From sequence record MK639187: DNA of 64,000 nucleotides, one strand, 5' to 3'. This document shows, piece by piece, positions 6,657-26,494 of the stretch. Each line of letters begins with the position of its first letter. The stretch's first letter is position 1. The position numbers and the translations under genes were made by a program. Below the pieces are notes generated by a model. It searched no databases. It had not been told where the DNA came from and worked only from the letters and a program-made list of their open reading frames with translations. The stretch is from Shigella phage SSE1.

Positions 6657-6658
6657 TA

Positions 6659-7582: not shown

Positions 7583-7672
7583 AATTAACTCGAATCAGTA
7601 TAACTGAAGAAAAGTTTGGTGAATTTTAAGTCAACAACTTTATGAAAGTTATGTATCTTTGATAGTATCTCG

Positions 7673-7716
7673 TGCTTTAAGATAGGTCTCTAAATATTAT
7701 GATATAATAGACCTAT
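7673..7716 (+). promoter_or_regulatory. Promoter region upstream of gp55 with MotA-box-like TGCTTTA and stem-loop ATAGGTCT/AGACCTAT
   Basis: Spacing to the -10 candidates is not canonical. Confidence 0.35.
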
Positions 7717-7737
7717 GAATTGAGCTAAGAGGTACTT

Positions 7738-8295: not shown

Positions 8296-8494
8296 CATCT
8301 CTAACTACTTAGAAGAACCTTTTGACGAAGCAATCCCTTATTTGGTAAAACTGTTGGGTCGTGAATTTAAAATTAATTTTGACATCGACCCTTTGAACCC
8401 ACATGACGTGTCATTTTCGATAAATGGGACTCCGGTTGAGTATGAGTTCTGTATTGAAGAGGATGGACGTTTTTATTTTAATTTAATGAGATAA
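8285..8494 (+). CDS. Hypothetical protein
   Basis: ATG 8285 overlapping gp55 stop. Confidence 0.4.
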
Positions 8495-8495
8495 T

Positions 8496-8819
8496 ATGAC
8501 TACCGAGATTATTGAAAATAAAGAAGCAGAAGATGCAGTAGCTAAAATGCTACAAGAAATCCAAAAGAAAAATGAAGCTGAAGCACGTAAAAAATCCGAA
8601 AAGATTCTTAAAAAGAATCGTTTTGAACTAAACCGTCTTTATGCTCATGCTCAAGAAGCAGCAATTCAAAACAACTTCGAAGCTTACGAATATGCTATTA
8701 AGAAATCTCGGGATATTCTACGACAACCATATAATGACAAGTTAATTAAAATCCAGTGGGTTACTACTCGTCAGGCTATTGAGGACATCATTAATGGCGC
8801 TAGTTCAAACAAAGTTTAA
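8496..8819 (+). CDS. Hypothetical protein
   Basis: 107-aa ORF. Confidence 0.5.
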   Translation: MTTEIIENKEAEDAVAKMLQEIQKKNEAEARKKSEKILKKNRFELNRLYAHAQEAAIQNNFEAYEYAIKKSRDILRQPYNDKLIKIQWVTTRQAIEDIINGASSNKV

Positions 8820-9000
8820 ACGATTGAAGCTGAACGCAGGGTTCACCCTTAAATTGGGAGGTCCTCTTTGTGTTAAAATCTCTGAAAAGGAATATCACGA
8901 CGGTTCTATTACAGAAATTTGTCCACCTATTGTAAAGGCAGACCCAAAACAACTCGTATGGGTTGATTCATTTCAAGTTAAGAAATGGTGGAAACGATGA
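8794..9000 (+). CDS. Hypothetical protein
   Basis: ATG 8794 after GAGGA. Confidence 0.4.
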   Translation: MALVQTKFKRLKLNAGFTLKLGGPLCVKISEKEYHDGSITEICPPIVKADPKQLVWVDSFQVKKWWKR

Positions 9001-9039
9001 GAGAAATCGATTTAGGTATTTTCTGAGAGGTGATTATGC

Positions 9040-9213
9040 ATGACGAACGACCTGACCTCTGAAAATTTCGATAAAATCCGTAAAGGCAAAGCAGAAAGAA
9101 TGAGACGTTTTAAAGAGTCTTATGATAAAGCTAAAGCCGAAGGAACTATTACATACAAGCCCATTCGATTTAAAAGTTCAAATGAGCCTCTGTATGGTGT
9201 ACTATGTGGATAG
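9040..9213 (+). CDS. Hypothetical small protein
   Basis: 57-aa ORF read by hand, followed by hairpin terminator. Confidence 0.35.
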   Translation: MTNDLTSENFDKIRKGKAERMRRFKESYDKAKAEGTITYKPIRFKSSNEPLYGVLCG

Positions 9214-9238
9214 GAACTCTTCGGAGTTCCTTTTTTGC
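9213..9238 (+). terminator. Intrinsic terminator (GGAACTC-TTCG-GAGTTCC, T6)
   Basis: Seen in sequence, upstream of gp47. Confidence 0.7.
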
Positions 9239-9282
9239 TTTATAAACGGATGATAGAATGAATTAACTAATGAGGAAATAAT

Positions 9283-10302
9283 ATGAAAATTTTGCACTTA
9301 GGCGACTTCCATATTGGAGTCAAACAAGACGACCCATGGGTTCAAGATATTCAACGTGATGGTATTCGTCAAGCAATTGAATACTCTAAGAAACACGGGA
9401 TTAAAACTTGGATTCAGTACGGTGATTGGTTTGACGTCCGTAAAGCAATAACACATCGTACAATGGAATTCAATCGTGAAATCGTTGATATGATTTCTAA
9501 AGCAGGCATTCACGTTCATGTCACGATAGGAAACCATGACATGGCGTTTAAGAATACAATAACACCTAACACTGTTTCTGAATTATTAACTCAATTTGAA
9601 AACTTTACTATTTACGAACATCCAACTACTGTAGATTTTGACGGATGTCTGATTGATATCGTTCCATGGATGTGCGAAGAAAATACAGGTGAAATCTTAG
9701 AGCACATCAAGACTTCTTCTGCCGCGTATTGTGTTGGGCACTGGGAACTGAATGGTTTTTATTTCTATAAAGGAATGAAGTCTCATGGGCTTGAACCTGA
9801 TTTCTTAAAGACCTATAAACAAGTCTGGTCCGGCCACTTCCACACAATCTCTGAAGCTGCTAACGTCAAATATATCGGGACACCATGGACCCTTACTGCA
9901 GGCGATGAGAACGACCCGCGCGGATTCTGGGTATTCGACACTGATGTTGAACGTATGGAATTTATTCCTAATGAAACAACATGGCATCGACGAATCACTT
10001 ATCCGTTTAAAGGCAAAATCAATTATTCTGATTATACTAATCTAGCCGTACGTGTTATAGTATCAGAAATTGATTCAGAGTTGACTAAGTTTGAATCTGA
10101 ACTTGAAAAAGTAGTTCACTCTCTTCGTATGGTTTCTAAAGTTGATAACAGTGTTGAATCTGATGACGACCAGGAAATCGAGATTAAATCACTTCAAGAT
10201 ATCATTAAAGAATATATTGACGCGATTCCAGATATCTCAGACGAAGACCGAGAAGCGCTGGTCAAATATTCCAACGAACTTTATATCGAGGCAACACAAT
10301 GA
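9283..10302 (+). CDS. 47: Recombination nuclease subunit gp47 (Mre11-like)
   Basis: 339 aa, calcineurin-like phosphoesterase motifs (GDFHIG, GNHD). Confidence 0.9.
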   Translation: MKILHLGDFHIGVKQDDPWVQDIQRDGIRQAIEYSKKHGIKTWIQYGDWFDVRKAITHRTMEFNREIVDMISKAGIHVHVTIGNHDMAFKNTITPNTVSELLTQFENFTIYEHPTTVDFDGCLIDIVPWMCEENTGEILEHIKTSSAAYCVGHWELNGFYFYKGMKSHGLEPDFLKTYKQVWSGHFHTISEAANVKYIGTPWTLTAGDENDPRGFWVFDTDVERMEFIPNETTWHRRITYPFKGKINYSDYTNLAVRVIVSEIDSELTKFESELEKVVHSLRMVSKVDNSVESDDDQEIEIKSLQDIIKEYIDAIPDISDEDREALVKYSNELYIEATQ

Positions 10303-10556
10303 CTTTAGATGAATTTAACAATGCCGGACTCAGCCTTGAAGTTGAAATGGACGTTAAAGATGATGATGGATTCGAGAACACTATCAAGTATTGGATTGAA
10401 CCATTACGCGTTGAAGGCAATGAAGTTAAAGCAGTTCATGTCTGCACCGACTGGGCTGTTGAATTTAGCTTTAATATAATGGACAACGATACTCCTGGCT
10501 CTATTCTTAAAATGGCTGAAGCGTGTATTGAGGATGCGTATAATGACGAAGACTGA
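10299..10556 (+). CDS. Hypothetical acidic protein
   Basis: 85-aa ORF. Confidence 0.45.
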   Translation: MTLDEFNNAGLSLEVEMDVKDDDGFENTIKYWIEPLRVEGNEVKAVHVCTDWAVEFSFNIMDNDTPGSILKMAEACIEDAYNDED

Positions 10557-10782
10557 TTATGAAATCCATCGTCATGAATTTAGTATTGGTGACGGTTATA
10601 TTGGTATCGTTGAATGGACTGAGAATTACGAGGAATCAACTCCTCGTTTCTTTGGAACCATGTATGTTACCTGTGAGTACGCACCAGGTGTTGTCATGTA
10701 TGCAGAACTAGATGAATATTTTGCTGATAGAGATGACATGTTAAAATATGTAGAGGACTTCATTCGAAGAGAATACATATGA
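10543..10782 (+). CDS. Hypothetical protein
   Basis: ORF-track start 10528 is TTG; ATG at 10543. Confidence 0.45.
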   Translation: MTKTDYEIHRHEFSIGDGYIGIVEWTENYEESTPRFFGTMYVTCEYAPGVVMYAELDEYFADRDDMLKYVEDFIRREYI

Positions 10783-12467
10783 AATCATTTAAATTAAATC
10801 GTGTTCGTTATCAAAACATCATGTCGGTAGGTGGGAATCCTATTGATATCCAATTAGATAAAGTCCAAAAGACATTAATCACTGGTAAAAATGGCGGTGG
10901 TAAATCTACGATGTTAGAAGCCATTACTTTCGGACTTTTCGGTAAACCATTTCGTGATGTTAAGAAAGGACAAATCATTAACAGCACGAACAAGAAAGAG
11001 CTCTTAGTTGAGCTTTGGATGGAATTCGATGATAAAAAATACTTCATTAAACGTGGCCAAAAGCCCAATATTTTCGAAATCTCCGTTGACGGTGTTCGTC
11101 TTGATGAATCTGCCAGCAGTCGGGACTTCCAAGAAGAATTTGAACGTAGCATCGGAATGTCATACGCGTCTTTTAAACAAATCGTTGTGCTTGGGACGGC
11201 AGGGTATACCCCTTTCATGGCTCTTAGCACCCCTGCTCGCAGAAAACTTGTCGAAGACCTTTTAGAAGTCGGCACACTCGCTGAAATGGATAAAATCAAT
11301 AAGTCTCAAGTTCGAGAACTTAATTCCCAGGGACAAGTTCTAGATGCCAAGAAAGATGGTATTATCCAACAAATTAAGATTTATAACGAGAATATCGAAC
11401 GTCAAAAGAAATTATCTGGTGATAATGTAGCGCGTCTACAGAATATGTATGACGACCTAGCCAAAGAAGCTCGTTCATTAAAAGCAGAAATCGAAGAAGC
11501 TAATGAGCGACTACTTAATATCGTTCTTGATGAAGACCCTACTGAGGCATTCAACAAGATAGGACAAGAAGCATTCTTGATTAAATCTAAAATTGACTCA
11601 TATAACAAAGTTATTAAGATGTATCATGATGGTGGTACATGTCCTACTTGTGCATCACAGTTGCACCAGGGTGATCCTATTGTCTCTAAGATTACCGATA
11701 AGCTTCACGAATGTAATCACTCATTCGAGCAACTTACATGTCACAGAGATAATCTGAGTGTCCTAGTGGACGAATATAGAGCTAATGTTAAGACTAAACA
11801 GGACCTTGCATCTGATATTCGTACCAAGAAACAAGCAATGATTGCCACTATTGATAAAGCTAAGAAAGTTAAAGCTGCAATAGAACAAGCCTCGGCAGAA
11901 TTTATCGACCATGCCGATGAGATAGCTTTGCTTCAAAAAGAACTTGATAAAATCATTAAAACAAAATCAGATATCGTTCTTGAAAAATACCATCGTGGTA
12001 TTATCACAGATATGTTAAAAGATTCTGGTATTAAAGGTGCTATCATTAAAAAATACGTGCCTCTGTTCAACAAGCAGATTAACTATTATCTTAAAATCAT
12101 GGAAGCTGATTACGTGTTTTCTATTGACGAAGAATTCAATGAATCTATAAAATCACGTGGTCGTGAAGATTTTAGTTATGCTTCATTTAGTCAAGGTGAA
12201 AAGGCACGTATCGATATCGCATTGTTGTTTACATGGCGAGATATTGCTGAAAAGGTCTCTGGTGTTAAAATCAACACTCTGATTCTTGATGAGGTTTTTG
12301 ATGGTGCTGTCGATTCTGAGGCTGTTAAGGCTATAGATACCATTCTTGGAAGTTTACAAAATACTAATGTGTTCATTATCTCTCATCGAGACCATGACCC
12401 TCAACGTTATGGACAACATCTTCAGATGAGCAAAGTTGGACGATTTACTGTAATGACTGTTTCATAA
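10779..12467 (+). CDS. 46: Recombination ATPase subunit gp46 (Rad50/SbcC-like)
   Basis: 562 aa, Walker A GKNGGGKST, coiled-coil middle with CPTC zinc hook, C-terminal signature/Walker B (ILDEVFD). Confidence 0.9.
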   Translation: MKSFKLNRVRYQNIMSVGGNPIDIQLDKVQKTLITGKNGGGKSTMLEAITFGLFGKPFRDVKKGQIINSTNKKELLVELWMEFDDKKYFIKRGQKPNIFEISVDGVRLDESASSRDFQEEFERSIGMSYASFKQIVVLGTAGYTPFMALSTPARRKLVEDLLEVGTLAEMDKINKSQVRELNSQGQVLDAKKDGIIQQIKIYNENIERQKKLSGDNVARLQNMYDDLAKEARSLKAEIEEANERLLNIVLDEDPTEAFNKIGQEAFLIKSKIDSYNKVIKMYHDGGTCPTCASQLHQGDPIVSKITDKLHECNHSFEQLTCHRDNLSVLVDEYRANVKTKQDLASDIRTKKQAMIATIDKAKKVKAAIEQASAEFIDHADEIALLQKELDKIIKTKSDIVLEKYHRGIITDMLKDSGIKGAIIKKYVPLFNKQINYYLKIMEADYVFSIDEEFNESIKSRGREDFSYASFSQGEKARIDIALLFTWRDIAEKVSGVKINTLILDEVFDGAVDSEAVKAIDTILGSLQNTNVFIISHRDHDPQRYGQHLQMSKVGRFTVMTVS

Positions 12468-14905: not shown

Positions 14906-15469
14906 ATGAACTTATTCGATGATGACGTCCGGCTTAACGAGCACCAAATTGCATGGAAGTCTAATGACGCTGATGCGATTCAAAAATGTGCTGATATGTT
15001 TAAAGAAAAACCTGAGAATGAATTCTTTAAAATCATTAATGCTATTAATGAAAAGAAATCTATGTCAATTGCTCAGGTCGACTACTCAAAATTTATGGTT
15101 GAGAACTCATTATCCCAGTTCCCAGAATGTATGCCAGCTGTTTACATGATGAACTTAGTCGGTTCTGAATTAAGCGATGAAGCGCACTTCAACTATATGA
15201 TGGCTGCAATTCCGCATGGTCGTCGATTCTCTAAATGGGCTAAACTGGTTGAAGACACTTCAGAGTTACTAGTTATCAAATTGTTGATGAAACATTACAC
15301 GATCAACATGAATGATGCTACAGAGTATAAGCGGCTCCTTGAAAAAAATAACAAGCTGCCAATAGTCCTTAAAGAACTGAAGGCCATGGTCACTGATGAG
15401 TTTCTCAAAGAAGTTACAAAAAATGTGAAAGAACAAAAACAATTTAAAAAATTAGCATTGGAATGGTAA
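14906..15469 (+). CDS. 62: Clamp loader small subunit gp62
   Basis: 187 aa, between gp44 and regA. Confidence 0.8.
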
Positions 15470-15471
15470 AA

Positions 15472-15840
15472 ATGATCGAAATTAAATTGAAGAACCCTGA
15501 AGATTTTCTGAAAGTCAAAGAGACTTTGACCCGTATGGGCATCGCTAATAACAAGGATAAAGTTCTTTATCAGTCCTGTCATATCCTCCAAAAGCAAGGT
15601 AAGTACTATATCGTCCACTTTAAAGAAATGCTGCGTATGGACGGACGTCAGGTTGATATTGATGGTGAAGACTATCAGCGACGTGATTCGATTGCTCAGT
15701 TGCTTGAAGACTGGGGATTGATTGTTATTGAAGACTCTGCTCGTGAAGATCTGTTTGGCCTGACTAATAACTTCCGTGTTATCTCTTTTAAACAGAAAGA
15801 TGACTGGACTTTGAAAGCAAAATATACAATTGGTAATTAA
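15472..15840 (+). CDS. regA: Translational repressor RegA
   Basis: 122 aa from MIEIKLKNPEDF, recognised as T4 RegA-like. Confidence 0.9.
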   Translation: MIEIKLKNPEDFLKVKETLTRMGIANNKDKVLYQSCHILQKQGKYYIVHFKEMLRMDGRQVDIDGEDYQRRDSIAQLLEDWGLIVIEDSAREDLFGLTNNFRVISFKQKDDWTLKAKYTIGN

Positions 15841-15846
15841 AGCAAT

Positions 15847-15860
15847 GGGACTTCGGTCCC
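15847..15860 (+). promoter_or_regulatory. UUCG-tetraloop hairpin in gp43 leader
   Basis: GGGAC-TTCG-GTCCC, no T-run. Confidence 0.4.
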
Positions 15861-15921
15861 ATTTGGAGTATAATAAGTTCATCAACAAACAAAAGACAAT
15901 AACTCGTCTAAAGGAAATTAA

Positions 15922-18633
15922 ATGAAAGAATTTTACTTAACGGTTGAACAGATTGGTGATTCAATTTTTGAACGTTACATCGATTCTAATGGCCGTGAAC
16001 GTACTCGTGAAGTAGAATATAAACCATCACTGTTTGCTCATTGTCCGGAAAGTCAGGCTACGAAATATTTCGATATCTACGGTAAGCCGTGTACTCGTAA
16101 GTTGTTCGCCAATATGCGTGATGCGTCTCAATGGATTAAACGCATGGAAGATATCGGACTTGAAGCACTTGGCATGGACGATTTCAAATTGGCGTATTTG
16201 TCTGACACTTATAACTATGAAATCAAATACGACCATACAAAAATTCGTGTGGCTAACTTCGACATCGAAGTAACATCTCCGGATGGGTTCCCTGAGCCGT
16301 CACAAGCAAAACATCCGATTGATGCTATCACCCATTATGACTCAATTGATGACAGGTTCTACGTATTTGATCTATTGAATTCTCCATATGGTAATGTAGA
16401 AGAATGGTCTATCGAAATTGCGGCTAAGCTTCAAGAACAAGGTGGTGATGAAGTTCCATCCGAAATTATCGATAAAATCATTTATATGCCGTTCGATAAC
16501 GAAAAAGAATTGTTGATGGAATATCTCAACTTCTGGCAACAGAAAACTCCTGTCATTTTGACTGGATGGAACGTTGAGTCATTTGATATTCCATATGTGT
16601 ATAACCGAATCAAGAATATTTTTGGCGAATCTACTGCGAAACGTTTATCACCACATCGCAAGACTCGTGTTAAAGTTATTGAAAACATGTATGGTTCTCG
16701 TGAAATCATTACATTGTTCGGTATCTCTGTTCTTGATTACATTGACCTTTACAAAAAATTCTCTTTTACCAATCAACCATCATATTCTCTGGATTACATT
16801 TCAGAATTTGAATTGAACGTTGGTAAACTGAAATATGACGGCCCTATTTCTAAGCTTCGTGAAAGCAATCACCAACGATATATTTCTTATAACATTATCG
16901 ACGTGTATCGTGTATTGCAAATTGATGCTAAGCGTCAGTTCATCAACTTGAGTTTGGACATGGGTTATTATGCTAAAATTCAGATTCAATCTGTGTTTAG
17001 CCCAATTAAAACATGGGATGCTATTATTTTTAATAGCCTTAAAGAGCAGAACAAGGTGATTCCACAAGGCCGTTCTCACCCGGTTCAACCTTATCCTGGC
17101 GCTTTTGTTAAGGAACCTATTCCAAATCGATACAAATATGTAATGAGTTTCGACCTTACATCTCTGTATCCAAGTATTATTCGCCAAGTGAATATTAGCC
17201 CAGAAACAATAGCAGGAACGTTTAAAGTAGCTCCACTGCATGATTATATTAACGCAATCGCTGAACGTCCTTCTGATGTGTACAGTTGTTCTCCTAACGG
17301 CATGATGTATTATAAAGACCGTGATGGTGTAGTTCCAACTGAAATCACTAAGGTCTTTAATCAACGTAAAGAACATAAAGGTTACATGCTTGCGGCTCAA
17401 CGTAATGGTGAAATAATTAAAGAGGCATTGCATAATCCTAATCTTTCTGTTGACGAACCATTAGATGTTGATTATCGTTTCGACTTCAGTGATGAGATTA
17501 AAGAAAAGATTAAAAAGTTGTCCGCTAAATCTCTTAATGAAATGTTGTTTAGAGCTCAACGTACTGAAGTTGCAGGTATGACTGCCCAAATTAACCGTAA
17601 ATTGCTTATCAACTCACTTTATGGTGCACTTGGCAACGTTTGGTTCCGTTATTATGATTTGCGTAATGCTACTGCAATCACAACATTTGGTCAAATGGCT
17701 TTACAGTGGATTGAACGTAAAGTTAATGAATATCTGAATGAAGTTTGTGGTACAGAAGGTGAAGCTTTCGTTCTTTATGGTGATACAGACTCTATTTACG
17801 TATCTGCTGATAAAATTATCGATAAGGTTGGTGAATCTAAATTCCGTGATACCAACCATTGGGTAGACTTCTTAGATAAGTTTGCACGTGAACGTATGGA
17901 ACCAGCTATTGATAGAGGTTTCCGTGAAATGTGTGAATACATGAACAATAAACAACACTTAATGTTCATGGACCGAGAAGCTATCGCTGGGCCTCCACTC
18001 GGTTCTAAAGGTATTGGTGGATTCTGGACTGGTAAGAAACGTTATGCATTAAACGTGTGGGATATGGAAGGTACTCGTTACGCTGAGCCTAAACTCAAAA
18101 TCATGGGTCTAGAGACTCAGAAATCTTCGACTCCTAAAGCAGTACAGAAAGCTCTTAAAGAATGTATTCGTCGTATGCTTCAAGAAGGTGAAGAATCATT
18201 ACAAGAATATTTTAAAGAGTTTGAAAAAGAATTCCGTCAATTGAATTATATTAGCATCGCGTCGGTATCTTCTGCGAATAACATTGCTAAATATGATGTA
18301 GGTGGATTCCCTGGTCCCAAATGCCCGTTCCATATTCGTGGAATTCTGACGTATAACCGGGCTATCAAAGGTAATATCGATGCACCGCAAGTTGTAGAAG
18401 GTGAAAAAGTATATGTTCTGCCTTTACGTGAAGGAAACCCATTCGGTGATAAATGTATCGCATGGCCTTCTGGTACTGAAATCACAGATTTAATTAAAGA
18501 CGACGTACTTCATTGGATGGACTACACTGTTCTCCTTGAGAAGACATTTATTAAACCACTTGAAGGATTCACATCAGCAGCGAAACTCGATTACGAGAAG
18601 AAAGCATCTCTATTCGATATGTTCGATTTTTGA
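15922..18633 (+). CDS. 43: DNA polymerase gp43 (family B)
   Basis: 903 aa; exo motifs (FDIEV), polymerase motifs (DxxSLYPS, YGDTDS); same length as RB69 polymerase. Confidence 0.97.
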   Translation: MKEFYLTVEQIGDSIFERYIDSNGRERTREVEYKPSLFAHCPESQATKYFDIYGKPCTRKLFANMRDASQWIKRMEDIGLEALGMDDFKLAYLSDTYNYEIKYDHTKIRVANFDIEVTSPDGFPEPSQAKHPIDAITHYDSIDDRFYVFDLLNSPYGNVEEWSIEIAAKLQEQGGDEVPSEIIDKIIYMPFDNEKELLMEYLNFWQQKTPVILTGWNVESFDIPYVYNRIKNIFGESTAKRLSPHRKTRVKVIENMYGSREIITLFGISVLDYIDLYKKFSFTNQPSYSLDYISEFELNVGKLKYDGPISKLRESNHQRYISYNIIDVYRVLQIDAKRQFINLSLDMGYYAKIQIQSVFSPIKTWDAIIFNSLKEQNKVIPQGRSHPVQPYPGAFVKEPIPNRYKYVMSFDLTSLYPSIIRQVNISPETIAGTFKVAPLHDYINAIAERPSDVYSCSPNGMMYYKDRDGVVPTEITKVFNQRKEHKGYMLAAQRNGEIIKEALHNPNLSVDEPLDVDYRFDFSDEIKEKIKKLSAKSLNEMLFRAQRTEVAGMTAQINRKLLINSLYGALGNVWFRYYDLRNATAITTFGQMALQWIERKVNEYLNEVCGTEGEAFVLYGDTDSIYVSADKIIDKVGESKFRDTNHWVDFLDKFARERMEPAIDRGFREMCEYMNNKQHLMFMDREAIAGPPLGSKGIGGFWTGKKRYALNVWDMEGTRYAEPKLKIMGLETQKSSTPKAVQKALKECIRRMLQEGEESLQEYFKEFEKEFRQLNYISIASVSSANNIAKYDVGGFPGPKCPFHIRGILTYNRAIKGNIDAPQVVEGEKVYVLPLREGNPFGDKCIAWPSGTEITDLIKDDVLHWMDYTVLLEKTFIKPLEGFTSAAKLDYEKKASLFDMFDF

Positions 18634-18673
18634 TATAATGACATGGACGGTAAACTAATTAAATGAGAGAAAT

Positions 18674-19309
18674 ATGAAAACTACTCCTATTACTATCGCT
18701 ATTGACGCAATCATAAAACAAGCTTCTTCTTTGGCCGCTATGGCCAAAGTAATTAGTCAAAACCCTGCTCGTTATAATGCTATTCTAGAAACTCTTCGAC
18801 GCCCAGGGCTTAGTAATTATGAAAGCCGAGTAATTATTACAGGTGTTGGTAAGAATGCTAATATTGCAACTAAAGCTTCTGAGACATTTGCTTCACTCGG
18901 TATCCCGAGTATGTACTTGAACACCGGGCATTATTCTCACGGTGATGCAGGATTCATTGCGCCTAATGATGTGTTGATTCATATTAGTCGTTCTGGTAAA
19001 ACTGAAGAAATGATAGGCGTGGCTAAGCATCTTAAAATGATTCGTCCGAACGTCAAACAGATTCTGTTGCATTGTAACCCAGACATTCCACAAGAAAATG
19101 AAGCCCTTTTTGATTACTCTTTCTGTACAGGCATCGCAGTAGAGGTTGATGAGAATTCTCTGGCTCCGACTATGTCCACTACATTATTGTTAGCGCTTAT
19201 CGATACGTTTGCTATCAACCTTTCGTCTGAACGTGGATTTACCTCTAATGACTTCCTTAAGTTCCACCCTGGCGGTGCACTAGGTGCCATGTTACGAGGC
19301 GAACAATGA
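18674..19309 (+). CDS. SIS-domain sugar-phosphate isomerase, KdsD/KpsF (arabinose-5-phosphate isomerase) type, no CBS domains
   Basis: 211 aa; GVGKN, SRSGKTEE, APTMSTT, FHPGGALG motifs. Confidence 0.75.
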   Translation: MKTTPITIAIDAIIKQASSLAAMAKVISQNPARYNAILETLRRPGLSNYESRVIITGVGKNANIATKASETFASLGIPSMYLNTGHYSHGDAGFIAPNDVLIHISRSGKTEEMIGVAKHLKMIRPNVKQILLHCNPDIPQENEALFDYSFCTGIAVEVDENSLAPTMSTTLLLALIDTFAINLSSERGFTSNDFLKFHPGGALGAMLRGEQ

Positions 19310-19449
19310 AAGCAATAACAATAGGACTTTTACTATTGATGCTTGTCATGACTATCTACTGGAGCTTAACGGCTCCGGTAATGATTCCGACACTTGTAAT
19401 TGGATGGATTATGATTGGACTACAAGCAAAGTATGAATGCTTTAACTAG
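19306..19449 (+). CDS. Small membrane protein
   Basis: 47-aa hydrophobic ORF read by hand; ATG overlaps SIS gene stop. Confidence 0.35.
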   Translation: MKAITIGLLLLMLVMTIYWSLTAPVMIPTLVIGWIMIGLQAKYECFN

Positions 19450-19490
19450 AATAGTGTACAATACTCCTACTTACCAATGAGGACCACAAC

Positions 19491-21176
19491 ATGAAAAAAG
19501 CTGTTATTCTTGGTGCTGGACTGGCAACTCGTTTGTATCCAATAACGCATCATATTCCTAAGGTGCTTGTTAACTATAAACAAGACACTATTCTGAGCAA
19601 TTTGTATACAATTTATTCTGACCTTGGCGCAGATGAAATTATTGTAGTAGTTCATTCAAAATTTGCTGAAACTGTTCGAGCTTATTGTGAGCAAGAAGGG
19701 TTCAATGTGACTATTCGTACAGTTGATGAAGCGTATGGATCTGCTTATGCTCTTGCTAAATTACACAAAGATTTAGACGGCCATAATGTAATTGTTAACT
19801 GGTGTGATATTATTCCCGATTTTGGTTCATGGTCTTGGAATGTTAACGCAATCTATGTTAAGGGTAACGAATGTCGATATAATTTCGACGGTGAAAATAT
19901 CACTAACGTAGGTTCAACAGGTGGTAATGTTGTAGGAATTTATCAGTTCAAAGACTGGGAATTCTATATGGGTTCTACTGATGAGGAAATTCATGAATAC
20001 TGCAAAGGACGTGATTTCGTAGAATTCCTTTACAGCGGTGCATTCAATAAATCAGAGCTTATGAATCTAATTGATTTAGGTGATATGCCTAAACTTGAAA
20101 AAGCTCATGAAGTTCGTGAACTTAATCGTAGTTTTAATGCAGTTGAAATTGGTGAAGAAACTGTAACTAAATTCGCATTAACTGAACAAGGTCGAGCTCT
20201 TCAGAAAGATGAGATTTCATGGTATCTTAAAGTGAAATCAGATTCAGTTCCTCAGTTAGTTTCTGTTAATGAAAATAACTTTGAAATGGAACGCATTAAA
20301 GGTAAGCCGGCATTTGAATATATTAAATCCAAATCAAGCCTTGCTCGTCCACAAATTGTTGATGCAATTTTAGACGCACTGAAATTCAGCACAGACACTT
20401 ATTTTGTAAGTCCTGAAACTGTTCGTCGTGATTTCACTAAAGAATTCTATACTAAAGTTATTGATCGTTGTGAAAGTATTCAACCGTTGATTGATTCATT
20501 TGGTAAAATCACACATGTGAACTACACTAAGATTGGGCGTCTGAAGCCAATGCTGAAACAAGCTTTAGAACACCTTATTCGTTATCATAACCGTTCTCAG
20601 GGACAGTACTCTGTTATTCATGGTGACCCGAACTTCAGTAATACTATGATTACTGATAACGGCGAAGTCAAGTTTATCGACCCTCGTGGATATTTTGGCG
20701 AAACCAAAATTTACGGGCCAAAATTGTATGATGAAGCTAAAGTGCTTTATGCTGTTTCAGGTTATGATGAATTCAACGCTAATCCGACCTGGGGCCAGTT
20801 TACTATTGATGAAACAACTTGTAATGTGACTATTAACATCAATCCATTAGTTTACAAATATGGAAAGATGAGTTCGTTTAACGAGTATCATCATTTGGCA
20901 GTGGCAATTATCTGGATTGCATTAGGTGGTTATTTCAAGAATAATCCACTTAAAGCGGTAGCCGCATATTATAAAGGTATGGAACTTCTGACTAAGCAAT
21001 TACGTAACATGGGCCGTGTACTTCAGGACGGCTCTATTAGTTATGACGTAGCAGAACCTGTAACGGCTACTCTGATTACAAAAAATCCTGGTAAATGGGT
21101 ACTAACTGATAAAGAAACTGGTGTTTCCTATCGTCCAATCGGTGGCGATATCACTCATCAATGGGAACGAATCTAA
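19491..21176 (+). CDS. Bifunctional sugar-1-phosphate nucleotidyltransferase / anomeric sugar kinase
   Basis: 561 aa; N-terminal ILGAGLATRLYPITHHIPKVLV (NTP-transferase G-loop); C-terminal VIHGDPNFSN and IDPRG (APH/AmgK-type kinase). Confidence 0.7.
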   Translation: MKKAVILGAGLATRLYPITHHIPKVLVNYKQDTILSNLYTIYSDLGADEIIVVVHSKFAETVRAYCEQEGFNVTIRTVDEAYGSAYALAKLHKDLDGHNVIVNWCDIIPDFGSWSWNVNAIYVKGNECRYNFDGENITNVGSTGGNVVGIYQFKDWEFYMGSTDEEIHEYCKGRDFVEFLYSGAFNKSELMNLIDLGDMPKLEKAHEVRELNRSFNAVEIGEETVTKFALTEQGRALQKDEISWYLKVKSDSVPQLVSVNENNFEMERIKGKPAFEYIKSKSSLARPQIVDAILDALKFSTDTYFVSPETVRRDFTKEFYTKVIDRCESIQPLIDSFGKITHVNYTKIGRLKPMLKQALEHLIRYHNRSQGQYSVIHGDPNFSNTMITDNGEVKFIDPRGYFGETKIYGPKLYDEAKVLYAVSGYDEFNANPTWGQFTIDETTCNVTININPLVYKYGKMSSFNEYHHLAVAIIWIALGGYFKNNPLKAVAAYYKGMELLTKQLRNMGRVLQDGSISYDVAEPVTATLITKNPGKWVLTDKETGVSYRPIGGDITHQWERI

Positions 21177-21562
21177 TGCACCGTGTAGAAAACATGCTTA
21201 ATCTTTGTTTTGATGTCGACGATTGTATAACAGAGTGGAATAACAATCGTGATTACGTGAACTTCAAGCCAGACGTCGAAATGGTGACTGCCATTAATGC
21301 CCTGTATGATGCAGGGCATACCATAACGCTTTACACTGCTCGCGGTATGAAGTCAGTAGGTCCTGGTCGTATAGCAATTGACATTCTCCCAAGTCTGATT
21401 CAGAACTTGGCAAACATTGGCTTGAAGTACCATAATTTGCTAACACATAAACCAGTATATGATTGGATTATCGACGACAAAGCTATGCGTCCTGACGAAT
21501 TCAAAGCTCTTATGAATAAAGGCGAATTCGAAACATTTAAATCATATAAACCGAACCTATAA
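21176..21562 (+). CDS. HAD-like phosphatase (putative)
   Basis: 128 aa from ATG 21176 (TAATG overlap); FDVDD motif I-like, TLYTAR, IIDDK. Confidence 0.45.
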   Translation: MHRVENMLNLCFDVDDCITEWNNNRDYVNFKPDVEMVTAINALYDAGHTITLYTARGMKSVGPGRIAIDILPSLIQNLANIGLKYHNLLTHKPVYDWIIDDKAMRPDEFKALMNKGEFETFKSYKPNL

Positions 21563-21608
21563 TAATTTAAGTAAGACCTGCAAAAACCATCGCATCAACT
21601 AACGCGAG

Positions 21609-22778
21609 ATGCAAAAAATGAATACTTTTAAAATCGGAACGAATTTTGATTTAGCTCTTCTTGATAAAATCGTAGAGCTCAATAAAACTTATCCTAATAG
21701 CTTGATAAACGAAGTATACGGCTCTACAAGAGAAATGGCTTTTGTAGCAGCCAGACCTGATTTTAGGCTTCCTGACGTTGACAAAAAGATGTTAGAAGAT
21801 TACGTTAAACGTTGTAACGAATTAGGTATTTGCTTTAACTATACACTCAACACGATAAATCCTGGTTCAAAAAGAGAACTAGTCGAGTGGAAGAAGAAAG
21901 CTATTCAGGATTATGTTCAGTATCTTTGGTCAATAGGCGTATGGCGTATTACTATCGCTAACCCTGTTGTTATGGAAATTGTTCGTGAAGTCAATAAAGA
22001 CATTGAGATTGAAGTTTCAACAATTCTACATGTCGATGCTGTAACTCAAATCAAATACTTACATGACCAATACAATATCAAAAAGGTCTGCTGTGGAATT
22101 CATAAGAACCGTTCAGTTTCTTTCCTGAAGCGTGCAGCAGAGTTTTGCAATAAGAACAATATAATATTTGAAGTTCTTGTAAATGAGTTCTGTTCTAATG
22201 CTGGTAAAGGGTATACAACACATTGTAGCTATCGTGACTCTTGCTATATTTTCCATAGTACTGATGTTACAGTAGATGATGCTAAATCCTTAAACGGATA
22301 TCCTATGCAGCACTGTATTAAAGCTCGTGATACAGACCCATTTAACTGGTTGAGAACTCGTTTTGTTCGTCCTCAAGATTTGAAACTTTATAATGATATT
22401 GGTATCACTCAATTCAAAGTTTCAGGACGTACAGGTAGCACAGACTACATTTTGAAAGTTCTTGAAGCTTATGCTTCTGAAAAATTTGAAGGTAATTTGT
22501 TGGAATTGTGGAAGCCTTTAGAGACCATTTTCACTCTTGAAAATGAGACCGAGTTTTCACATACGGTAAATATTGAAACCTCTTTGTTAGATGGCTTTTT
22601 AGAAAAAAGGTGGTTCAAACATCCAGATTTCGATTGTGCTAATGAAATCTGCGGGACGACGTGTACATATTGTGAAAGATATTATAAACGTCAGTTATCT
22701 AAAAATGGGTTATCAGAAAATTCTATATCTATTATTGATATAACTAACTCTGACGACGCTTTGAGGTACCCAGAATGA
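21609..22778 (+). CDS. Cys-rich protein of unknown function
   Basis: 389 aa; Cys clusters EFCSNAGKGYTTHCSYRDSC and CANEICGTTCTYCERY. Confidence 0.55.
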   Translation: MQKMNTFKIGTNFDLALLDKIVELNKTYPNSLINEVYGSTREMAFVAARPDFRLPDVDKKMLEDYVKRCNELGICFNYTLNTINPGSKRELVEWKKKAIQDYVQYLWSIGVWRITIANPVVMEIVREVNKDIEIEVSTILHVDAVTQIKYLHDQYNIKKVCCGIHKNRSVSFLKRAAEFCNKNNIIFEVLVNEFCSNAGKGYTTHCSYRDSCYIFHSTDVTVDDAKSLNGYPMQHCIKARDTDPFNWLRTRFVRPQDLKLYNDIGITQFKVSGRTGSTDYILKVLEAYASEKFEGNLLELWKPLETIFTLENETEFSHTVNIETSLLDGFLEKRWFKHPDFDCANEICGTTCTYCERYYKRQLSKNGLSENSISIIDITNSDDALRYPE

Positions 22779-22936
22779 TTTCTAGAAAAACTTTTAACCA
22801 CCAACTTAACGAAGAGATTTTGACTACGAAAATTAACAGCAACGAACAAATTCTTAAAAAGGCCCTTATGGGCCTGTTTGAAACTAAAGCGGCTAAAGTG
22901 ATTAAAGAAACCTGTTCAACTAGAATACTACGCTGA
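22775..22936 (+). CDS. Small ORF, possibly a frameshifted gene (continuation to 23015 in +1 frame)
   Basis: 53-aa ORF; downstream frame codes a protein-like tail but has no start codon. Confidence 0.3.
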   Translation: MISRKTFNHQLNEEILTTKINSNEQILKKALMGLFETKAAKVIKETCSTRILR

Positions 22937-23056
22937 TGCATTTCTTCATAGTGTTCTTGGAAGTATCGATGCTGAAGCTTTACGTTATATCAACATCGCT
23001 AAGAAATTCAAATAAGCTTTATGAATTGAGTATATAATAACTGTATTGAGGTAAAC

Positions 23057-23773
23057 ATGGGAAAACATAACACAATGAAATATATTAAAGCCGCAGATTT
23101 TCAATCCGCATTTAAAGTTGTCAATCGTGAAATTTTAGAAAACCCGGAATTCGTTACTGATTCTCGTATTGGACGTTGTAATGAAATTGGGTCTATGACA
23201 GTAGTTGTTGATACCCCTTCATCATTCAAAATGTCAGACCCACGTATTAATCGCATCTCTTATGAATATGCTGAAGATTTCTGGAAATTTATGATTTCTG
23301 GTGGTACTGATGCAGAAGAAGCATTTAAGGCATATCCTAACGTTGCTAAATTTATTTCTAAACCTAAATCAGATGCTTTGCCTGCGAACTTCAACACTTT
23401 CTATGGTCCACGAATTGCGGCCCAGTTACCAGCTCTTCTCAAAGAACTTAAAGAGAAACCTAATTCACGAAGAGTTGTGTTTCAAATTCTTGAAAGTTCA
23501 GATCAGGCTTTGCTTGATTCGGACGAAACACTTGAATATCCATGTACTGACTCAGTGACTTATTATATTCGTGATGGTAAGCTTTATACCCACTGTCATA
23601 TGCGTTCTCAGAACTGTGCTGTTGTTATGCAGTTGGATTTTTATCTCCAAGGAAAATTACTTCATTATATCGCTAACGAATGTGGTGTAGAAGTTGGTGA
23701 TTATACTCATACCATGGTAAGTGCCCATGTGTTTGAACGTGATTTTGATTATGTTAAAGGATTCCTTGACTAA
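23057..23773 (+). CDS. 42: dCMP hydroxymethylase gp42 (thymidylate synthase family)
   Basis: 238 aa; PNSRRVVFQ and YPCTDSV...HCHMRSQN align with the T4 gp42 pattern. Confidence 0.85.
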   Translation: MGKHNTMKYIKAADFQSAFKVVNREILENPEFVTDSRIGRCNEIGSMTVVVDTPSSFKMSDPRINRISYEYAEDFWKFMISGGTDAEEAFKAYPNVAKFISKPKSDALPANFNTFYGPRIAAQLPALLKELKEKPNSRRVVFQILESSDQALLDSDETLEYPCTDSVTYYIRDGKLYTHCHMRSQNCAVVMQLDFYLQGKLLHYIANECGVEVGDYTHTMVSAHVFERDFDYVKGFLD

Positions 23774-24672
23774 TGGCTATTTTCCGCGTACCTATCTTGA
23801 GTATGCGGTCTTATGAAACTGGACAGTATGCTATCCTTAAGGATGGCAACTTCCAACTTCATTTGCACCGTGCTAATCCAGGTGATGTGATTACATATCC
23901 ACGTAATGCATCTGATATTAAAGAATGCGAACGTCTTTTTCCAGAATTTAAGTTTGTTCCATTATGGTATAAAGATAACGCGTATAACACTCGTAAATAT
24001 TTCTGGTCTGAAAATGAATTTGTGGTTGATTCATTAATTGCTTATTATGATTGTGATTTTCTAATCACAGATATCACCGGATATGACGGCTCTTTTGATG
24101 TGGAATTCAATTTCAATATCACTGCAGATCCTAATAAACCACGTTTTTATATTGACGAATTCTTAAAAACTGATATGTTGTCGGTTAATCGTTCACTTCA
24201 AACTACTGTGTTGAATGAACGTCAAAAAGAAGTGCTGGTTAACGCAGGTGCAGATGGTAATAAGATTATCGTAACGCAGAAAGTTATACGTCCTTCCATC
24301 ATGCAGCGTCTTGTAGGTGATTTGGCTCCTATTCATCTAGATGGTATTTTTCATCCATTTCGAATTAGTGACCCGTGCTATCGTTTTGAACAAGTGGTTG
24401 AATGCGCAATTCAATTAGGTCAACCGCTTTATATAACTGATCCAAATAATAGTTTCGACAGAAATAAGTATCCTGAAGAAGCGCTGATTCGAATTTTTAA
24501 TCCAACTAAAACTGAGTACTATCAAATTCTTAAAGGACGTCCGAAGATTCAATATTTCGAAAATCCTGAAGAAGTATTCCATCCAGGTCTTGGCGAGTTC
24601 ATCTACTTTAACGCTTTAATTTCTTCGCCGTATAATATACCTAAATATGAAGATGTCGTAATCGAGGAATAA
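23773..24672 (+). CDS. Unknown protein in the beta-glucosyltransferase position
   Basis: 299 aa, start overlaps gp42 stop; no similarity to T4 beta-gt recognised. Confidence 0.55.
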   Translation: MAIFRVPILSMRSYETGQYAILKDGNFQLHLHRANPGDVITYPRNASDIKECERLFPEFKFVPLWYKDNAYNTRKYFWSENEFVVDSLIAYYDCDFLITDITGYDGSFDVEFNFNITADPNKPRFYIDEFLKTDMLSVNRSLQTTVLNERQKEVLVNAGADGNKIIVTQKVIRPSIMQRLVGDLAPIHLDGIFHPFRISDPCYRFEQVVECAIQLGQPLYITDPNNSFDRNKYPEEALIRIFNPTKTEYYQILKGRPKIQYFENPEEVFHPGLGEFIYFNALISSPYNIPKYEDVVIEE

Positions 24673-24673
24673 A

Positions 24674-25222
24674 ATGGCTAAAATTATTTTAGTAGATGGC
24701 CCGGATAATGCTGGTAAAACAACTTTCATTAATGACATAATGGAAATTAGTGAAAGATATGTAAAGATTGATTTCCCTAAACGAACAGTTGATGGACGTT
24801 TCGATGTTAAGTCTCGAAATGAAGTTGGCTGTTTCGAAACGATGTTGAATTATTTAGACCCTACTAAGATTTATCTGTTAGACCGTGGATATATTAGTAA
24901 CTGGGTTTATGGACGTATTCGACAAGATGCGGACTCGGTTCTTGACGTTTATGAACAGGATTATGTTCGTCTTTGCCAAAACCATGATGTGTTCACAATT
25001 ATTTTAACACGTAACGAAATGACTGAAAGTTTTGAAGACGACCTTATTACTTTGTCTTCGTTCGGTTTTAATACAGTCATTTCATATTTTGAAGAGTTTG
25101 CAATTCATAACGAAATCCAAACGTATCAATTACTTAATCATGATGGTGCTAACAAAGTTATAGGATTTAATGCAAGCGAACGTAATAATTTGATTACAGA
25201 AATTATCAAATGGGCTCGTTAA
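24674..25222 (+). CDS. P-loop kinase, thymidylate/deoxynucleoside kinase-like
   Basis: 182 aa; Walker A DGPDNAGKTT, DRGY motif. Confidence 0.55.
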   Translation: MAKIILVDGPDNAGKTTFINDIMEISERYVKIDFPKRTVDGRFDVKSRNEVGCFETMLNYLDPTKIYLLDRGYISNWVYGRIRQDADSVLDVYEQDYVRLCQNHDVFTIILTRNEMTESFEDDLITLSSFGFNTVISYFEEFAIHNEIQTYQLLNHDGANKVIGFNASERNNLITEIIKWAR

Positions 25223-25321
25223 GAGCCTGTTTAAAGTTTTAAATGCTGTATAACCCTTAGTATATAATCGTCTTATCTTTTAAACATGAGTAAAATATAA
25301 TGATGCCTATGGAAAAATACA

Positions 25322-26494
25322 ATGTCTGATTTAAAATCTCGTCTGATTAAAGCTTCTACTTCTAAAATGACTGCAGACTTGACTAAGTCTAAGCTGTTTA
25401 ATAATCGTGATGAAGTCCCTACTCGTATTCCGATGTTGAATATTGCATTAGGTGGTGCACTGAATGCCGGGTTGCAATCAGGCTTAACTATTTTTGCTGC
25501 TCCTTCTAAACACTTTAAAACGTTGTTTGGACTGACCATGGTTGCAGCATATATGAAGAAATATAAAGATGCAATTTGTTTGTTCTATGATTCAGAATTT
25601 GGTGCTTCAGAATCTTATTTTCGTTCAATGGGTGTTGATTTAGACCGTGTAGTTCATACTCCGATTCAATCTGTCGAACAACTTAAAGTTGATATGACTA
25701 ATCAGCTTGACGCTATTGAACGCGGTGATAAAGTTATTATCTTTATCGATTCAATCGGTAATACTGCATCTAAGAAAGAAACCGAAGATGCATTGAACGA
25801 GAAAGTCGTAGGTGATATGTCTCGTGCTAAGGCACTTAAATCTCTGTTCCGCATTGTGACTCCTTATCTGACTATTAAAGATATTCCATGTGTTGCAATC
25901 AACCATACAGCAATGGAAATTGGTGGATTGTATCCTAAAGAGATTATGGGTGGTGGTACAGGTATTCTTTATTCTGCTAACACTGTATTCTTTATCTCTA
26001 AACGTCAGGTTAAAGAAGGTACAGAATTGACCGGTTATGACTTCACGTTGAAAGCAGAAAAATCTCGTACAGTTAAAGAGAAATCTACTTTCCCGATCAC
26101 GGTTAATTTCGATGGTGGTATCGACCCATTCAGTGGCTTGTTAGAAATGGCGACTGAAATTGGTTTTGTGGTTAAGCCTAAAGCTGGTTGGTATGCTCGT
26201 GAATTCCTTGACGAAGAAACGGGCGAAATGATTCGTGAAGAAAAATCATGGCGTGCTAAAGCTACTGATTGTGTAGAATTCTGGGGACCATTGTTTAAAC
26301 ACAAACCTTTCCGAGATGCAATTGAAACTAAATATAAACTAGGTGCTATCTCTTCTATTAAAGAAGTTGATGACGCTGTTAACGACCTTATTAATTGCAA
26401 AGCAACAACTAAAGTTCCGGTTAAAACTTCTGATGCTCCGTCTGCAGCAGATATAGAAAACGACCTTGACGAAATGGAAGATTTCGATGAATAA
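25322..26494 (+). CDS. uvsX: Recombinase UvsX (RecA-like)
   Basis: 390 aa, recognised as T4 UvsX-like across its length. Confidence 0.95.
   Translation: MSDLKSRLIKASTSKMTADLTKSKLFNNRDEVPTRIPMLNIALGGALNAGLQSGLTIFAAPSKHFKTLFGLTMVAAYMKKYKDAICLFYDSEFGASESYFRSMGVDLDRVVHTPIQSVEQLKVDMTNQLDAIERGDKVIIFIDSIGNTASKKETEDALNEKVVGDMSRAKALKSLFRIVTPYLTIKDIPCVAINHTAMEIGGLYPKEIMGGGTGILYSANTVFFISKRQVKEGTELTGYDFTLKAEKSRTVKEKSTFPITVNFDGGIDPFSGLLEMATEIGFVVKPKAGWYAREFLDEETGEMIREEKSWRAKATDCVEFWGPLFKHKPFRDAIETKYKLGAISSIKEVDDAVNDLINCKATTKVPVKTSDAPSAADIENDLDEMEDFDE

Follow-up and report, generated by a model that had tools for sequence, protein, structure and literature searches.

The window analysed here is a stretch of 64,000 nucleotides from Shigella phage SSE1 (sequence record MK639187), and its interval 18674-22778 carries five open reading frames (ORFs) between the gp43 DNA polymerase gene and a gene of the thymidylate synthase (ThyA) superfamily. 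Judging from the near-identity of its proteins to known counterparts, this interval is very probably the sugar-donor half of the published arabinosyl-5-hydroxycytosine cluster (RB69 gp45-gp55; Afh in phage HY126), with the sugar and base branches operating as published. The pathway leading to a nucleoside diphosphate (NDP)-pentose for DNA decoration is thus already known (published in 2018 and in 2025-2026). The sugar pathway alone adds little, and the new, testable prediction lies in the last of the five genes, which encodes a protein of 389 residues belonging to the Peptidase_U32 family (U32 below) and most likely standing outside the sugar route. We propose that U32 would be an iron-sulfur (Fe-S), prephenate-dependent and O2-independent cytosine C5 hydroxylase making the 5-hydroxycytosine precursor, a function to which its sequence and gene company give about an even chance. 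The wider proposal, which could equally well prove right or wrong, is that a new U32 subfamily present in many phages would carry out O2-free C5 hydroxylation of cytosine, in deoxycytidine monophosphate (dCMP) or in DNA, with prephenate as oxygen donor.

Family, residues and conservation of the U32 protein

The U32 gene (21609-22778, + strand; counterpart of RB69 gp50) was assigned by Pfam, its product matching Peptidase_U32 (PF01136) with 42.4 bits against a cut-off of 22.4. Fold comparison gives a TIM barrel of the U32 type, and a sequence and profile search of the protein against Protein Data Bank chains returned nothing meaningful. The preliminary description of this DNA, made from the sequence alone, had included a 389-residue Cys-rich protein in a nucleotide-sugar synthesis module. 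Its richness in Cys holds (13 residues), but the protein is a family member rather than an orphan, and its place in the sugar route is most likely to be given up.

Characterised members of this family are linked genetically to modifications of RNA or quinones: RlhA is required for ho5C2501 (a 5-hydroxycytidine) in 23S rRNA, TrhP for ho5U34 (a 5-hydroxyuridine) in tRNA, and UbiU/UbiV for anaerobic ubiquinone hydroxylations (PMC10990095, PMC6599085, bioRxiv 10.1101/587956). These hydroxylations are O2-independent, and prephenate is the oxygen donor for UbiU/UbiV and is required for TrhP and RlhA (PMC10990095, PMC6599085). The characterised members hold 4Fe-4S clusters through conserved Cys residues (PMC10990095, PMC6599085, bioRxiv 10.1101/587956), and the family motif CX6CX15CX3/4C binds such a cluster (bioRxiv 10.1101/587956).

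The residues essential for activity are E162, C170 and C177 in TrhP and E161, C169 and C176 in RlhA (PMC6599085). This Glu and these two Cys align with E188, C195 or C206, and C212 of the phage protein, the first Cys position being C195 in the MAFFT alignment and C206 in that of hhalign. E188 and C212 are common to the phage and E. coli proteins without exception, and none of the aligned positions varies among 59 homologues. Ten Cys in all are invariant there, including a C-terminal CX4CX3CX2C motif (C343-X4-C348-X3-C352-X2-C355). The other spacing is C195-X10-C206-X5-C212-X23-C236, and the invariant Cys are enough for two clusters.

By its sequence, the phage clade is a separate subfamily. 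Its placement within RlhA, TrhP or UbiU/V was tried and rejected, because the hidden Markov model comparison (best match TrhP) and hhalign (best match RlhA, 78%) disagree and all the matches are weak. With 389 residues, the phage protein is without the extra C-terminal domains of RlhA (653 residues) and TrhP (453 residues). It has 282 relatives in a large protein collection, many of them metagenomic and ~50-58% identical to it.

Across T4-like genera, U32 identity is 83-89%, versus 65-79% for the DNA polymerase, 77-82% for the ThyA-like protein and 42-73% for the nucleotidyltransferase-kinase AfhE. U32 thus exceeds all other proteins of the cluster in conservation, as would not be expected of a decaying or marginal gene. 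The same figures bear on the names found in GenBank and RefSeq, 'peptidase' and 'putative protease', which would make U32 a protease ('collagenase-like peptidase') or a protein with no function in modification. We hold this to be very improbable: the name was carried over from that of the family, the characterised members are linked to hydroxylation (PMC10990095), and the 83-89% conservation together with the ten invariant Cys argues for a constrained redox or metal enzyme.

Gene company of U32 in other phages

The surroundings of U32 were compared in 45 viral loci from IMG/VR and seven loci from other assemblies, whose ORFs were searched with iterated profiles of the window proteins; the counts are split between 16 T4-like and 29 non-T4 loci. 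Across very different phages, the gene lies within clusters of a GT1-like glycosyltransferase (GT1), a kinase, dCTPase or dUTPase, and dCMP deaminase (45 loci). A GT1-like transferase was found in 16/16 T4-like and 20/29 non-T4 loci, and a thymidylate-kinase-like kinase in 16/16 and 23/29, respectively. With respect to the sugar genes, the corresponding counts are 16/16 and 10/29 for AfhE, 12/16 and 9/29 for the SIS isomerase, and 16/16 and 8/29 for the HAD-type phosphatase.

U32 adjoins a ThyA-like gene in all 16 T4-like loci. Among the non-T4 loci, a ThyA-superfamily ORF is present in only 1/29 (L029), and this ORF retains L143, D169 and N177 and is thus a canonical thymidylate synthase. No ThyA homologue occurs within 10 kb of U32 in the other 28 of the 29, a count that covers ~10 kb around U32 only. 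In several non-T4 loci, a deoxynucleoside triphosphate pyrophosphatase, a kinase, GT1 and U32 stand alone beside the replicative polymerase. The non-T4 loci thus encode a transferase needing a 5-hydroxyl acceptor, and often the genes for the arabinose donor too, but within 10 kb they have no ThyA-type hydroxylase, the sole enzyme known to form this hydroxyl; U32 appears to occupy the place of the latter. In numerous uncultivated phages, U32 would be the only hydroxylase of a glycosyl-5-hydroxycytosine pathway.

The same neighbourhoods bear on the possibility that U32, together with the chorismate mutase of some relatives, acts on host RNA as a phage copy of TrhP or RlhA and is unrelated to DNA modification. 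RNAs are the only known pyrimidine substrates of the family (PMC5727448, PMC6599085). However, the gene stands within DNA-modification and nucleotide-metabolism clusters in 45 loci, and the protein lacks the C-terminal domains of RlhA and TrhP mentioned above. An RNA-directed role seems improbable to us.

The published label of the protein is a different one. Table 1 of PMC13326640 gives gp50 as 'sugar or heterocycle reductase', and U32 could on that account be a reductase acting on a sugar or a heterocycle as part of the sugar module, for instance to yield a deoxy-pentose donor variant. Shewanella phage Thanatos (protein P0018) has the same cluster, with a U32 protein 80% identical to that of the window and with a chorismate mutase in addition; its cytosines are reported to bear an O-linked 'deoxypentose', and the source of the hydroxyl group is not explained there (PMC12838424). 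Moreover, U32 adjoins SIS and AfhE genes in 9-10 uncultivated loci. However, RB69 and NP carry U32 and yet have plain arabinose (PMC13326640, PMC13390438), and no member of the family is known as a reductase. Besides, six loci (L011, L030, L034, L042, L043 and L051) combine U32 with only GT1 and a kinase and have no sugar genes, and a reductase would leave the adjacency of chorismate mutase and DAHP synthase genes unexplained. We consider a reductase unlikely. For Thanatos, the content of the cluster suggests arabinosyl-5-hydroxycytosine chemistry or a close variant of it. Nothing in the final RB69 product requires a reductase, as fits an enzyme that is superfluous in aerobic laboratory culture.

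The adjacency just mentioned concerns the supply of prephenate. Prephenate is the product of chorismate mutase, DAHP synthase opens the pathway leading to it, and in E. coli it is made via PheA and TyrA. A small ORF between the U32 and ThyA-like genes encodes a chorismate mutase in 13/16 T4-like loci (Pfam 35.7-49.7 bits against a cut-off of 27), and the domain is found in 3/29 non-T4 loci. The 13 loci (L015-L026 and L028, gene at ~11130-11900) belong to phages of Pectobacterium, Enterobacter, Klebsiella, Yersinia, Serratia, Proteus and Edwardsiella. This small protein is of the AroQ type and is ~10 residues shorter in the middle of the domain than the metagenomic fusion domains described below; 10 of its positions never vary, and the two Arg, the Lys, the Ser and the Gln among them seem to resemble the catalytic residues of the E. 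coli chorismate mutase. A tblastn search found the gene in 52 GenBank phages, always beside U32 ('peptidase') or the ThyA-like gene. All 52 are from U32-carrying genera and none is an Acinetobacter phage or a Dhakavirus. In these records the chorismate mutase is mostly annotated as 'hypothetical protein'.

DAHP synthase domains occur in 0/16 T4-like and 5/29 non-T4 loci. A fusion of DAHP synthase and type II chorismate mutase precedes the HAD phosphatase and U32 genes in L039 (8399-9430), L040 (7290-8354), L041 (a duplicate of L040) and L044 (8323-9384). In the L044 and L040 fusions, the chorismate mutase domain scores 65-86 bits, and the other domain scores 114-151 bits with the Bacillus-type DAHP synthase model versus 30-52 bits with KDO8P synthase. 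A stand-alone DAHP synthase directly follows U32 in L010 (11145-11891) and L027 (9384-10127), with 199-216 bits for the DAHP model versus 61-63 bits for the KDO8P synthase model. A gene for such an enzyme, with or without chorismate mutase, is an auxiliary metabolic gene of an unusual kind in a phage DNA-modification cluster. In some uncultivated phages, the DAHP synthase-chorismate mutase would boost the supply of prephenate for U32.

As to how the proposed hydroxylase would work, the nucleotide is a more likely substrate than DNA because kinases are always found nearby. In T4-like phages of facultative anaerobes, U32 would pair with the flavin-dependent ThyA-like synthase, forming an anaerobic and an aerobic route to the same base. 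T4-like phages have an aerobic/anaerobic pair of this kind for ribonucleotide reduction.

Several points weigh against U32 as a prephenate-dependent hydroxylase. The Cys spacing of the phage proteins (CX10CX5CX23C) departs from the family motif, and all four E. coli paralogues score low with the phage-clade profile (TrhP 16.6, RlhA 9.7, UbiU 7.0 and UbiV -1.7 bits). Hydroxylation in vitro has yet to be demonstrated for any U32 protein (PMC10990095). The window contains no chorismate mutase-like ORF anywhere, other Mosigviruses are likewise without one, and the prephenate link comes from relatives. For the uncultivated phages, the lack of a ThyA-type hydroxylase applies only to the ~10 kb around U32. 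Acinetobacter phages and Dhakaviruses have the arabinose genes and no U32, and E. coli Dhakaviruses such as JS98, which possess the cluster without U32, indicate that the protein is dispensable for modification. A relation between U32 and the oxygen lifestyle of the host was also considered and holds only in part: no Acinetobacter phage has U32, yet E. coli Dhakaviruses and Vibrio phages do not have it either. This imperfect pattern is weak evidence because it reflects few clades. With regard to the literature, the reductase label is the single mention of gp50 in PMC13326640; that paper notes pyrimidine hydroxylation of the RlhA/TrhP type without tying gp50 to such chemistry, and the terms peptidase, chorismate and prephenate are absent from it. 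Our literature search found no paper linking a phage U32 protein to 5-hydroxycytosine, but He et al. 2026 and Mahler et al. 2025 were outside its scope and may treat the gene.

If the hydroxylase proposal is true, it would explain the full DNA modification of gut phages in surroundings where an O2-dependent hydroxylase cannot work, and it would provide a concrete purpose for phage chorismate mutase and DAHP synthase genes. It would also offer a compact, single-domain U32 enzyme, possibly with a small-molecule substrate, that could allow the first reconstitution of a prephenate-dependent hydroxylation. Such modifications are relevant for phage therapy, since the sensitivity of a phage to restriction and to other defences depends on them.

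Other arrangements were seen among the U32 loci. A glycosyltransferase of the TET-associated type (TAGT; Pfam 33.7 bits) follows U32 in L012 (11068-11997) and L035 (11062-11976), and a UDP-galactopyranose mutase is encoded in L012 a few genes downstream of this pair (15073-16179). Contigs with TAGT and UDP-galactopyranose mutase suggest a decoration that starts from the same U32 step but carries galactofuranose instead of arabinose. In L037, the AfhE-like gene and U32 are separated by an inserted IS605-type OrfB/TnpB gene with a Cas12f-like TNB domain (8686-9954). L001, a very large phage contig (466 kb, JGI; 944-11939), has U32 in a nucleotide-metabolism block, and L002-L004 are grouped with it. 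In L001 this block encodes proteins of MazG/dUTPase-like, radical SAM-SPASM, GT1-like and thymidylate-kinase-like types, a uracil-DNA glycosylase, a DnaE-type polymerase and dCMP deaminase, and in blocks of this type a conserved protein of ~250 residues without family assignment follows U32. Two weak radical-SAM-like ORFs are located upstream of the GT1 gene in L044. The GT1-like proteins of 606 residues encoded by L036, L045 and L052 were considered as kinase-glycosyltransferase fusions and rejected, the kinase match being too weak (E 0.004-0.0075).

The sugar-donor block and the published pathway

The five ORFs are on the + strand, tightly packed and with overlapping stop and start codons, as the ORF map of the window confirms for the coordinates given in the preliminary description. 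They are flanked by gp43 (15922-18633) and the ThyA homologue (23057-23773), and their G+C content is that of the surroundings. The 4.5-kb block is found in 150 GenBank phage records, all of them RB69-like, with 95-99% DNA identity; the closest matches are phage PNJ-6 (98.5%) and RB69 (97.9%). This recurrence indicates that the ORFs are not due to chance and, on the criterion of sequence identity, that the window is from a Mosigvirus. A promoter and terminator scan of 18400-25400 gave 23 sites versus 27 expected from shuffled sequence and thus no excess.

The cluster proteins are 96-100% identical to their RB69 and HY126 counterparts and their genes are collinear (gp43, SIS, nucleotidyltransferase-kinase, HAD, U32, ThyA homologue, glycosyltransferase, kinase, uvsX). 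Identities to the HY126 proteins are 99% for SIS, 96% for AfhE (96.4% over the full length), 99% for HAD, 99% for U32, 98% for the ThyA-like protein, 99% for GT1 and 100% for the kinase. The early claim of a self-contained route from ribulose 5-phosphate to an NDP-pentose, serving a non-glucose decoration of cytosine, agrees with the published view (PMC6024577; PMC13326640). Thomas et al. 2018 reported that RB69 DNA contains arabinose, merged ORF053c and ORF052c into one gene of 561 residues and proposed that its product and the SIS protein make UDP-arabinose (PMC6024577). Lee et al. 2026 found, by mass spectrometry (MS) and nuclear magnetic resonance (NMR), 5-hydroxycytosine with one or two arabinoses, ether-linked and with no methylene (PMC13326640). 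No contrary evidence was found for the published sugar and base branches. The sugar steps of AfhE and AfhF are reported from experiments on HY126 proteins 96-99% identical to those of the window, and the isomerase and glycosyltransferase assignments are predictions in the literature.

In the sugar branch, a predicted SIS isomerase would convert ribulose 5-phosphate into arabinose 5-phosphate, and the C-terminal kinase domain of the 561-residue protein would phosphorylate the latter at C1 to arabinofuranose 1,5-bisphosphate. The HAD phosphatase would then remove the 5-phosphate to give arabinose 1-phosphate, from which, with UTP, the N-terminal nucleotidyltransferase domain would make UDP-arabinofuranose.

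The first of these genes (18674-19309, +; arabinose-5-phosphate isomerase, 211 residues, homologue of RB69 gp55) was assigned with Pfam and NCBIfam. Its product scores 41.9 bits with Pfam SIS and, in NCBIfam, 112.9 bits with KpsF/GutQ (family cut-off 203.7) and 107.7 bits with KdsD. The match spans KdsD positions 47-202 of 328, the C-terminal tandem CBS pair being missing, and no GmhA match appeared among the NCBIfam and Pfam results, so that its earlier description as a KdsD/KpsF-type rather than GmhA-type isomerase without CBS domains is upheld. Its identity is 100% with RB69 gp55 and 99% with the HY126 counterpart, and the isomerase function is a prediction (PMC13326640, PMC6024577). No SIS isomerase was detectable in the cluster of the Klebsiella and Proteus T4-like phages L014, L018, L019 and L025 and of JS98 (L009), which have AfhE, HAD, ThyA-like and GT1 genes; in JS98 an unrelated ORF of 166 residues takes its place. 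Such phages presumably take arabinose 5-phosphate from host KdsD or GutQ.

The next ORF (19306-19449, +) encodes a hydrophobic peptide of 47 residues, recognised by its Kyte-Doolittle profile (mean 1.36; windows of 19 residues up to 2.17), in agreement with the membrane peptide first proposed. It has no family match in Pfam or NCBIfam. The peptide is kept at the same position in HY126, phiE142, Serratia phage CHI14 and one other locus, and the annotated RB69 ORF054c corresponds to the last 36 codons of its gene. The RB69 record likens this gene to the T4 42-imm intercistronic region, and in JS98 a similar small ORF adjoins imm. Although the peptide is present in the block, it has no evident role in the pathway and is probably not a pathway enzyme.

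The third ORF (19491-21176, +; bifunctional nucleotidyltransferase-kinase of the AfhE type, 561 residues, RB69 ORF53_52c) was assigned by its domains and its identity to the HY126 protein. NTP_transferase is matched with 39.1 bits at residues 3-99, and weak APH/fructosamine-kinase matches cover residues 344-409, with the catalytic loop HGDPNFSN intact at 377 and IDPRG at 396, which substantiates the fusion recognised at first. In the window the gene is one ORF, in agreement with the RB69 sequencing correction of PMC6024577. The fourth ORF (21161-21562, +; HAD-superfamily phosphatase of the AfhF type, 133 residues, RB69 gp51) has the HAD motif I DVDDC at residue 18 and 49.2 bits with the capsule biosynthesis phosphatase model TIGR01689, as fits the HAD-like phosphatase of the preliminary description. 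Its identity amounts to 98% with RB69 gp51 and to 99% with the HY126 counterpart, and the start equivalent to that of RB69 would be at 21176. Public names are misleading in this region: in RefSeq, 'phosphoheptose isomerase' stands for the HAD phosphatase and 'peptidase' for the U32 protein, and the ThyA-like hydroxylase appears in several records as 'thymidylate synthase' or 'dCMP hydroxymethylase'.

The order of the two middle steps had first been given differently: arabinose 5-phosphate would be dephosphorylated to free arabinose, which an anomeric kinase and a nucleotidylation would turn into the donor, and the sugar would be placed on 5-hydroxymethylcytosine (hmC) supplied by the gp42 dCMP hydroxymethylase. 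The domain content permits this order, and Table 1 of PMC13326640 still has phosphatase-first labels ('dephosphorylates Araf5p to Ara', 'phosphorylates Ara to Araf1p'). However, the text of the same paper follows the bisphosphate route. In the part of the HY126 enzymology that it relates from He et al. 2026, AfhE is an arabinose 5-phosphate 1-kinase and UDP-arabinose pyrophosphorylase, and AfhF is a Mg-dependent phosphatase converting arabinose 1,5-bisphosphate into arabinose 1-phosphate. As far as that account goes, the kinase thus acts first and the phosphatase second, contrary to the initial order.

As to the acceptor, arabinosyl-hmC was the interpretation of 2018 (PMC6024577) and had been taken over for the window. 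Its arabinose stands, but hmC does not: the NMR and MS data establish an ether link to 5-hydroxycytosine (PMC13326640), and PMC13390438 terms the earlier hmC assignment erroneous. The neighbouring gene, formerly read as gp42, is instead that of the ThyA homologue of the 5-hydroxy-dCMP synthase type (23057-23773, +; RB69 gp48), assigned by Pfam (Thymidylat_synt 56.8 bits) and signature residues and encoding a protein 98.7% identical to RB69 gp48. It carries L143E, D169N and N177D (E. coli ThyA numbering; RSQN...QLD and LEYPC in the alignment), D169N among them speaking for a hydroxylase and against the hmC acceptor. These three substitutions are the signature defined for 5-hydroxy-dCMP synthases, and RB69 gp48 makes 5-hydroxy-dCMP rather than 5-hydroxymethyl-dCMP, binds flavin and takes its oxygen from O2, according to 18O2 labelling (PMC13326640). 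The combination of free arabinose and an hmC acceptor is thus very doubtful.

The bisphosphate route and the 5-hydroxycytosine acceptor would be combined as follows. In the base branch, gp56 dCTPase would make dCMP, the ThyA homologue would hydroxylate its C5 with flavin and O2, kinases would raise the product to the triphosphate for incorporation by the polymerase, and two enzymes of the GT-B fold would attach arabinose to the 5-hydroxyl in DNA. The gp56 gene (33743-34261, +) encodes a protein 95.4% identical to RB69 gp56, the dCTPase that supplies dCMP for base modification (PMC13326640 Table 1). The thymidylate-kinase-like nucleotide kinase (24674-25222, +; RB69 gp45) was assigned by its 98.9% identity to gp45, a 'nucleotide kinase' in Table 1 of PMC13326640, and has weak dTMP-kinase P-loop matches. 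The claim that a glucosyltransferase homologue is missing from this phage is misleading, since two predicted GT-B arabinosyltransferases are encoded. DNA arabinosyltransferase 1 (GT1; 23773-24672, +; RB69 gp46:47) is a single ORF whose product has no Pfam match and is 98-99% identical to RB69 ORF047c plus ORF046c and 99% to the HY126 protein; its assignment follows from identity and Table 1 of PMC13326640. DNA arabinosyltransferase 2 (45384-46481, +) is 96.7% identical over 366 residues to RB69 ORF003c, which was proposed as a transferase in PMC6024577 and is listed as beta-arabinosyltransferase 2 in PMC13326640. In RB69, gp46:47 and gp3 are the predicted arabinosyltransferases (PMC13326640). 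Taken together, the preliminary description rediscovers a known system correctly, although some of its details are out of date.

Between U32 and the ThyA homologue, tblastn with RB69 ORF049c (79 residues in RB69) detected a frameshifted homologue (22775-23015, +). It is broken by a one-base difference in the A run attaaagaaacctg, which leaves an ORF of 53 residues (22775-22936) and an out-of-frame tail to 23015 that still reads ADAFLHSVLGSIDAEALRYINIAKKFK. The break stems either from an error in sequencing or from true decay into a pseudogene. In T4-like phages of Pectobacterium and Yersinia and in one other, a homologue of ORF049c is located ahead of the gene for chorismate mutase. The ORF at 22775-22936 was considered as a degenerate chorismate mutase and rejected: neither it nor the full-length Mosigvirus homologue has a Pfam match, and the hhalign probability is 2%.

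Relation to known systems

The closest systems are the RB69 and HY126 clusters, which have the same genes, order and predicted or reported chemistry, the window being another Mosigvirus copy. The window differs by its frameshifted ORF049c and by AfhE and GT1 being single ORFs, which are split in the old RB69 record by sequencing errors. With the hmC glucosylation of T4, the window shares position and logic: dCTPase, a ThyA-family enzyme acting on dCMP, kinases, incorporation by gp43 and post-replicative glycosylation by GT-B enzymes. However, the base would be hydroxylated and not hydroxymethylated in the window phage, and while T4 uses host UDP-glucose, the sugar here would be arabinofuranose from a self-made donor. 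Synthesis of an NDP-arabinose is not known from enterobacteria (PMC13326640), which is why the phage has to supply the arabinofuranose donor itself.

The isomerase has the SIS catalytic domain in common with E. coli KdsD and GutQ, its best family matches being KpsF, GutQ and KdsD and not GmhA. It differs from them in its 211 residues, in the absence of the tandem CBS pair and in its score below the full-length family cut-off, and its product would be destined for a DNA nucleotide sugar, not for 3-deoxy-D-manno-oct-2-ulosonic acid (KDO).

U32, finally, shares with RlhA, TrhP and UbiU/UbiV the Pfam domain and the TIM-barrel fold, and with RlhA and TrhP the essential Glu and two Cys. It differs in forming its own subfamily, in a non-canonical Cys spacing, in an extra C-terminal motif of four Cys and in having neither RNA-binding nor extra C-terminal domains, and its predicted substrate is a deoxynucleotide or DNA. 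The prephenate dependence of RlhA, TrhP and UbiU/UbiV matches the prephenate-supply genes found beside U32 in relatives of the phage, and the pairing of an O2-dependent with an O2-independent enzyme would mirror that of TrhO with TrhP and of UbiIHF with UbiUV.

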